The position numbers were made by a program, and so were the translations under genes. Source: Escherichia coli (GTDB lineage Bacteria; Pseudomonadota; Gammaproteobacteria; Enterobacterales; Enterobacteriaceae). From it: a stretch of 3,673 bases of DNA. Below, piece by piece: positions 254 to 1,408 of the stretch. Where the stretch lies: the NCBI RefSeq assembly GCF_003334765.1, contig NZ_QOWT01000069.1, one strand, 5' to 3'. The notes under the pieces are model-generated. The model was not told where the DNA came from and did no database searches. It saw only the letters and a program-made list of their open reading frames with translations. The stretch's first letter is position 1. Every line of letters starts with the position of its first letter.

Positions 254-1408
254 TCAGGCCACCGGTGCCGGGTTAAACACTGCCAGCTGGTTATGCAATC
301 CCCATTGATCCGAGAAAGTTTTCTTCTTCCCGCTGGCGACGTCGAGAATAAAGTGGAACAACTTCCAGCCCACCTCTTCAATGGTCTCTTCGCCGGTAGC
401 GATAGTGCCTGCGTTAATATCCATTAAATCAAACCAGTGGTTCGCCAGCCCGGTGCGGGTCGCCATTTTAATGACGGGTACCGCCATCAGGCCGTACGGC
501 GTACCACGGCCGGTCGTAAACACTTGCACGGTGATACCCGAAGCCACCTGTTGCGTGCCACAGACAAAATCGCTGGCTGGCGTCGCGGCGTAAATTAATC
601 CGCGTTTAGTCGGGTGTTGACCGGGCGACAGCACTTCAACAATTGCGGTTTTACCCGATTTAGCAATGGAGCCGAGTGCTTTCTTTACCACGTTGGCGAG
701 GCCGCCCTTTTTGTTGCCCGGCGAAGGGTTGGCGCTGCGGTCGGTTTTGCCCATATCGGGATAGTTATCGTATCAGGCCATCTCTTCGAGCAGACGCCTG
801 CCCACTTCTTCATTGATGGCGCGTGGCGTTAACAGATGAATGGCGTCGCGTACTTCAGTGACTTCGGAGAACATCACCGTTGCGCCGCAGCGCACCAGCA
901 GGTCAGAGTCGTAGCCGACAGCGGGGTTAGTGGTAACGCCGGAGAACGCGTCGCTGCCACCGCACTGCATGCCCACCACCATCACTTCGCCACCGAAGTT
1001 TGGGTTCAGCGCAATATTATGGATGGTGCGAATTGGCACCACGGCGGCCGGTACATTAATCGCTACGCCACAGCCGTAGAGGTGGTTCAAGTCGACCACG
1101 CCGTCGATGCTCGGGTATTTCGGCAGCAGGTCGCGTTCGATAATTTTAACCACGTAGTCCTCAACGTCTGCCATGCAGTGCACGCTGGTGGTAATACCCA
1201 ACAGGTTTTTGGTGCCCACGCTGCCGTCGGCGTTGCGGTAACCTTCAAAGGTGTAATCTTCCTGCGGCGGCAGTGGCTCCGGCACTTTGGTCGCCCGAGG
1301 CAGGGTGTTAAGCGGCGGCGCTTTCGGTAGCGTGACCGTGGATTCGTCGATCCAGCTGCCTTTGGCGACATCGCGTACCGTGTAACCGATAGCGAATGAT
1401 TTCACCAT
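254..1408 (-). pseudogene. garD: UxaA/GarD-family sugar-acid dehydratase (galactarate/altronate dehydratase-like), disrupted: in-frame TGA, 5' truncation, probable internal deletion
   Basis: ORFs 773..1408 (211 aa) and 254..754 (166 aa) lie in the same minus-strand frame, separated only by TGA at 773..775; reading through gives ...[32 protein letters not shown]... Family motifs are present: [63 protein letters not shown]. The C-terminal tail (...[28 protein letters not shown]) matches my recollection of GarD rather than UxaA, hence the tentative symbol. The ATG at 1408 has no Shine-Dalgarno (upstream mRNA is pyrimidine-rich, AACCUUCCUCA-AUG) and an in-frame stop sits 5 codons upstream (1421..1423), so the N-terminal part of the SAF domain is missing. 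Total length is about 377 codons against roughly 495-523 for intact family members. Confidence 0.7.

Follow-up and report, generated by a model that had tools for sequence, protein, structure and literature searches.

We are highly confident that positions 254-1410 (minus strand) of the window, as we call the whole 3,673-nt Escherichia coli stretch analysed here, are the relic of a second garD that was gained by horizontal transfer and is no longer functional, and that the in-frame TGA at 773-775 is among at least four lesions that disable it. The original prediction had taken this TGA for a single, recent nonsense mutation splitting a GarD/UxaA-family dehydratase gene. The stop is genuine and falls at a conserved Trp codon, yet the gene that carries it is already truncated and internally deleted, which makes the case a useful negative. 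The relic and its lesions map as follows.

254..1410, minus strand: garD-derived pseudogene relic, garD nt 186-1572 minus two internal deletions (alignment, PGAP note, 6U7L match)
773..775, minus strand: in-frame TGA at the codon equivalent to GarD Trp351 (garD alignment, 25 orthologues, island-copy genomes)
972..982, minus strand: junction (982|981) of a 219-bp (73-codon, in-frame) deletion, garD nt 626-844 (alignment, Pfam limits, 6U7L blocks)
1390..1391, minus strand: junction of an 11-bp deletion, garD nt 206-216 (alignment, frameshift relative to the native frame)
1410..1411, minus strand: 5' truncation junction (alignment, junction probe in 498 genomes)

An in-frame TGA at an invariant tryptophan

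The ORFs 773..1408 (211 aa) and 254..754 (166 aa) share one minus-strand frame and are parted by the TGA at 773-775, whose minus-strand context is GCC TGA TAC, so that the base 3' of the stop is T (U in RNA). Between this TGA and the ATG at 754 there are six further codons, and from 1390 to 254 the TGA is the sole stop in the garD frame. When Trp is put in the place of the stop, the read-through product matches the characterised E. coli GarD (PDB 6U7L) with E = 4.7e-232; the alignment is uninterrupted across the TGA, and the match falls into two blocks, 76-219 and 284-525. The original prediction was right, then, to see two same-frame ORFs with homology running straight across the stop.

In the alignment with resident garD, GAG TGG TAC stands against GCC TGA TAC of the window, and the TGA corresponds to garD nt 1051-1053, the TGG codon for Trp351 of E. 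coli GarD. Trp351 is invariant in all 25 GarD orthologues compared (83-97% identity); the residue at this position in UxaA is Phe. Trp therefore does occupy the stop position in the GarD orthologues, and the stop arose, as had been proposed, by a TGG (Trp) to TGA transition at the Trp351 codon.

Truncation and deletions in the relic

Lesions were mapped on an alignment of the window copy to resident garD from strain O26 11368, an intact gene of 1572 nt; the same alignment took in two island variants, L003 (B2-type, 96.8% identical) and L005 (99.1% identical). The claim of a single lesion does not survive this alignment, which shows three more besides the TGA: a truncated 5' end and deletions of 11 bp and 219 bp. 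No homology precedes garD nt 186 (window 1410), and the missing first 185 nt take with them codons 1-62, that is, the promoter, the start codon and most of the SAF domain. The lost 5' end is replaced at 1410/1411 by the upstream region of a divergent phage-derived (mobile-element) gene, leaving the relic with no promoter, ribosome-binding site or native start codon of its own.

L005 shares the 11-bp deletion (1391|1390); the B2-type L003 does not have it. The ATG at 1406-1408 begins with garD nt 188, the middle base of codon 63, and the first six codons of ORF 773..1408 (MVKSFA) lie outside the native garD frame; this fortuitous out-of-frame ATG is joined to the garD frame because of the 11-bp deletion.

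The 219-bp deletion sits exactly between two copies of a 10-bp direct repeat, TGGTGGTGGG, one of which is kept at window 972-981, while L003 has both; the loss is a textbook direct-repeat-mediated deletion. The Pfam domains of intact GarD are SAF (residues 22-92), GD_AH_second (122-270) and GD_AH_C (279-520), and the residues absent from the relic are 1-62 and about 210-282. The 219-bp deletion thus removes the distal half of GD_AH_second and the start of the C-terminal domain. Among the 73 deleted residues are 34 positions invariant among the 25 GarD orthologues, and the GLGCE motif (residues 212-216), conserved in GarD and UxaA, falls inside the deletion; of the two family-wide GarD/UxaA motifs, GLGCE and CGGSD, the relic keeps only CGGSD.

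The variants have extra lesions of their own: L003 carries a TAG at codon 221 and has lost 1 bp, and L005 carries a TAA at codon 372. The 219-bp deletion spans the stretch in which the B2-type variant carries TAG221 and the 1-bp frameshift, and with that stretch deleted the frame of the window lineage looks cleaner than that of the less-deleted variant. Chance is the putative account of how two deletions came to leave a 211-aa open frame with an ATG.

Annotation, family membership and the resident copy

RefSeq (PGAP) annotates 254..1421 as a 'UxaA family hydrolase' pseudogene, and the PGAP note in every record inspected reads 'frameshifted; internal stop; incomplete; missing N-terminus'. The pseudogene status is already known in this sense, RefSeq flagging the locus in hundreds of genomes, UTI89 and Nissle 1917 among them; our literature search found no account of this garD pseudogene.

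Most of the 120 listed best homologues are about 523 aa long (range 438-564), and those named in their source are galactarate dehydratases. The relic does not hold the three-domain architecture of GarD in one uninterrupted ORF of about 523 aa. None of the 120 ends at codon 351, and each covers both sides of the stop. Orthologues naturally ending at this position, which the original prediction had named as evidence that would speak against it, are thus absent among these 120 listed best homologues. A naturally split UxaA-type gene pair was rejected on the same ground and because the ATG at 754 has no Shine-Dalgarno sequence.

Strain GmM066, whose sequence matches the window at 100% identity, carries a resident garD that is intact (1572 nt), together with garPLRK, prlF-yhaV, agaR and the aga operon, and it also has an intact uxaA. 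Since both resident garD and uxaA are kept intact in GmM066, the relic is dispensable. The locus therefore shows what is expected of a pseudogene: disabling lesions (at least four), a neutral pattern of substitution and an intact copy in the same genome.

Genomic setting

The entire 3673-nt window recurs in 24 complete E. coli chromosomes at 99.9-100% identity. The region is an island inserted at tRNA-Phe (pheV), beside yqgA, and its contents include a tyrosine integrase, IS3/IS100/IS66/IS110 remnants, a malX module and kps capsule genes. The neighbours of the relic are the island copy of agaR, aldolase remnants, a malX/malY-like module and an island-borne aconitase gene. The remaining features of the window are these.

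1..191, plus strand: island copy of agaR (3' end only), convergent with the relic; identity to resident agaR 97.6%
197..227, no strand assigned: perfect 12-nt inverted repeat, TATGCCCGATAA / TTATCGGGCATA, with a 7-nt loop
1571..2083, plus strand: intact 170-aa 'UCP030791 family putative phage-derived protein' (or 'hypothetical protein') (RefSeq)
2172-2492, plus strand: ECs1377-family 'DNA-binding protein' pseudogene fragment with an internal stop
2511-3097, plus strand: IS66 tnpC remnant, 5'-truncated and frameshifted
3335-3673, minus strand: 3' end of a second, island-borne acnB (aconitase B) (L001:9335-15673)

The inverted repeat at 197-227 falls in the 62-nt spacer between the convergent stops of agaR' and garD'; the hairpin could pass for a terminator except that it lacks a T run, and it was not flagged in the terminator scan. 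The ORF 1571-2083 adjoins the relic at its truncated 5' end and is whole amid surroundings that are all broken; it had no NCBIfam match. The island acnB is full length in strain 746, followed directly by the citrate lyase genes citG-citX-citF-citE, and 5'-truncated beside an IS110 remnant in strain GmM066. The C-terminus of island AcnB appears to differ slightly from that of K-12 AcnB.

In the B2-type island (L002 / L003; NU14, FDAARGOS_1258) the neighbouring agaR' is itself frameshifted, and the relic is surrounded by sfa/foc fimbrial genes (NU14) or lies near a beta-ketoacyl-ACP synthase gene (FDAARGOS_1258). Because the B2-type surroundings differ, the garD'-agaR' block moves as a unit between island contexts.

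Distribution and age of the TGA

We probed 5426 genomes with a 61-nt, island-copy-specific sequence centred on the stop, in a TGA and a TGG version. The TGA probe hit 507 records in 505 of the 5426 complete E. coli genomes (about 9%), with 312 exact matches and 195 with one mismatch (worst 98.3%); the single mismatch is a C/T polymorphism seen in L003. The TGG version had no exact match among the 507 records from these 505 genomes. Plasmids, as opposed to chromosomes, account for two of the 507 records with the island copy. Another probe, spanning the junction of the 5' truncation, matched 498 genomes, UTI89, Nissle 1917 and NC101 among them.

The TGA is fixed in all 505 carrier genomes, including neutrally evolved variants about 2.6% diverged, and for this reason it is an old lesion of a long-dead relic, not the fresh knock-out of a working gene; the word 'recent' in the original prediction has to be dropped. 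The 5' truncation and the TGA are common to all sequenced island variants and are therefore, in either order, the oldest events that can be inferred. The other lesions are lineage-specific: the B2-type has TAG221 and the 1-bp deletion, a further strain has TAA372, and the window lineage has the two deletions. Since these tell the lineages apart, the relic has a modest use as a neutral marker of pheV-island lineages.

Substitution pattern and mosaic identity

Relative to the functional resident garD, codons 73-350 of the relic gave dS 1.07 and dN 0.084 (dN/dS 0.08). This low ratio at so large a synonymous distance argues that the copy was once a functional gene of a lineage well outside E. coli. 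A different pattern is seen among the island copies. Between the window and L003 we counted 7 synonymous and 21 non-synonymous differences (dN/dS 0.97, a small count of 28 substitutions), spread 9/10/9 over the three codon positions; the comparison with L005 gave dN/dS 0.32, resting on only 10 substitutions. The counts are small, and with dN/dS of about 1 the island copies appear to have drifted neutrally since inactivation, consistent with their lesions.

The DNA identity of the relic to resident garD (L004:657-2228) is uneven, 75-83% over garD nt 186-1015 and 95-100% over nt 1216-1572. Island agaR' (window 1-173) is 97.6% identical to resident agaR, and the island lacks the prlF-yhaV toxin-antitoxin module, which in the chromosome lies between garD and agaR. 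The mosaic identity profile suggests gene conversion or a chimeric (mosaic) origin. A donor of the diverged 5' two-thirds was sought by BLASTP with three protein segments, and no match above 89% was found among the 120 best homologues; Superficieibacter, Salmonella, Klebsiella and others among these are about equally distant from the diverged part.

We give only a small chance to the idea that the relic is not entirely inert, whether through ongoing gene conversion with resident garD/agaR or through a re-opened frame yielding a truncated protein with a new role. If gene conversion were the case, the island copy would be a recombination partner exchanging sequence with a metabolic gene relevant to fitness.

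Expression signals and recoding

No purine run resembling a Shine-Dalgarno sequence occurs in the 21 nt (TGATACGATAACTATCCCGAT) upstream of the ATG at 754, in agreement with what the original prediction had said of this internal start. The ATG at 1408 is preceded by AACCTTCCTCATA, likewise with no Shine-Dalgarno motif, and a promoter scan found no sigma-70-like promoter on the minus strand upstream of the relic. We infer that the relic probably yields no useful product.

An Rfam scan (E <= 1) gave no minus-strand match, the only hit being a chance miRNA match at 2670-2732 on the opposite strand. Folded from the UGA onward, a 60-nt stretch had a minimum free energy of -7.7 kcal/mol (z = +1.86 relative to shuffles); it is less structured than the shuffled sequences and forms no SECIS-like fold. 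With no stem-loop 3' of the UGA, and with Trp rather than Cys or Sec in the homologues, the locus lacks the marks of selenocysteine insertion or other recoding.

Alternative explanations

A reader of the window alone might suppose that a working GarD/UxaA-family gene, intact in all other respects, was inactivated only recently by a single nonsense mutation. The one-base TGG to TGA change at a conserved Trp fits this, as does the TGA being the sole stop in the garD frame of the copy, but the 5' truncation and the 11-bp and 219-bp deletions do not, nor do the presence of the TGA in all 505 carriers across variants about 2.6% apart and the neutral substitution between them; we judge this explanation highly improbable. 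A sequencing or assembly error with G as the true base (TGG), which the original prediction had listed among its alternatives, has nothing beyond the single-base difference to recommend it. It was rejected and is next to impossible, the identical TGA being found in 505 independently sequenced complete genomes and TGG in no record. The original prediction had also allowed for low-level UGA read-through, and a stronger form of this idea is programmed recoding, with the UGA read through or decoded as selenocysteine or Trp to give a full-length functional enzyme. The frame does continue across the UGA, and UGA is the leakiest stop codon in E. coli. The leaky context is UGA-C, however, and here the following base is U; the homologues have Trp, not Cys or Sec, and the Rfam and folding results speak against a recoding element. 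Even complete read-through would leave a product without the SAF domain and without 73 core residues, including GLGCE. The missing domains cannot be restored in this way and no SECIS-like structure is present, so functional read-through was rejected and programmed recoding is exceedingly improbable.

Co-option is very unlikely. It would give a new role to ORF 773-1408, to ORF 254-754 or to their transcript, for instance as a truncated GD_AH_C-domain protein or as a regulatory RNA convergent with agaR'. Both ORFs are long (211 and 166 aa), the 219-bp deletion spans the stretch with the B2-type TAG221 and 1-bp frameshift, and about 9% of complete E. coli genomes still carry the relic. Persistence is explained by hitch-hiking in a successful island, however, and evolution among the copies is neutral (dN/dS about 1); other lineages have the additional stops TAG221 and TAA372, and both ATGs are without a Shine-Dalgarno motif or any promoter-like site found.

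We return to a long-dead relic of a horizontally acquired garD as the favoured reading, for which we propose the following history. A second copy of garD (galactarate dehydratase) was acquired horizontally; it lies in the pheV tRNA-Phe island, beside a duplicated agaR and aga gene remnants and amid IS66 and phage-derived debris. The 5' truncation and the TGG to TGA change came earliest. Slippage or recombination between the 10-bp direct repeats accounts for the 219-bp deletion, and neutral drift of the island copies followed inactivation. The galactarate dehydratase activity of the cell is supplied by the intact resident garD of the garD-garPLRK locus. Of these elements the analysis demonstrates the lesions, where they occur, the neutral drift and the intact resident copy. 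On this reading the locus is uninformative about recoding, recent adaptive gene loss or assembly quality, and the finding is an ordinary one.

Comparison with known systems

The relic is homologous to E. coli GarD, and it shares with the resident locus a convergent agaR on its downstream side. It differs from GarD in lacking residues 1-62 and about 210-282, in its 11-bp frameshift and in having a stop for Trp351, and it differs from the resident garD locus in lacking the garPLRK neighbours, in having no prlF-yhaV before agaR and in its location in the pheV island.

Some UxaA-family enzymes are encoded as two genes, for a SAF-domain small subunit and a large subunit; such natural splits lie at the boundary between the SAF and catalytic parts, with a separate start and ribosome-binding site for each gene. 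The relic likewise comprises more than one ORF, but its break is inside GD_AH_C, at an invariant Trp.

The relic also resembles other E. coli island pseudogenes, such as those of the pheV island with the malX marker in UPEC/ExPEC strains (UTI89, NU14, Nissle 1917), with which it shares a setting of IS remnants, further pseudogenes and an integrase at a tRNA gene. The pseudogene annotation, the lineage-specific extra lesions and the neutral drift are also those of other E. coli island relics, from which nothing essential sets this one apart; only its mosaic identity profile is unusual.
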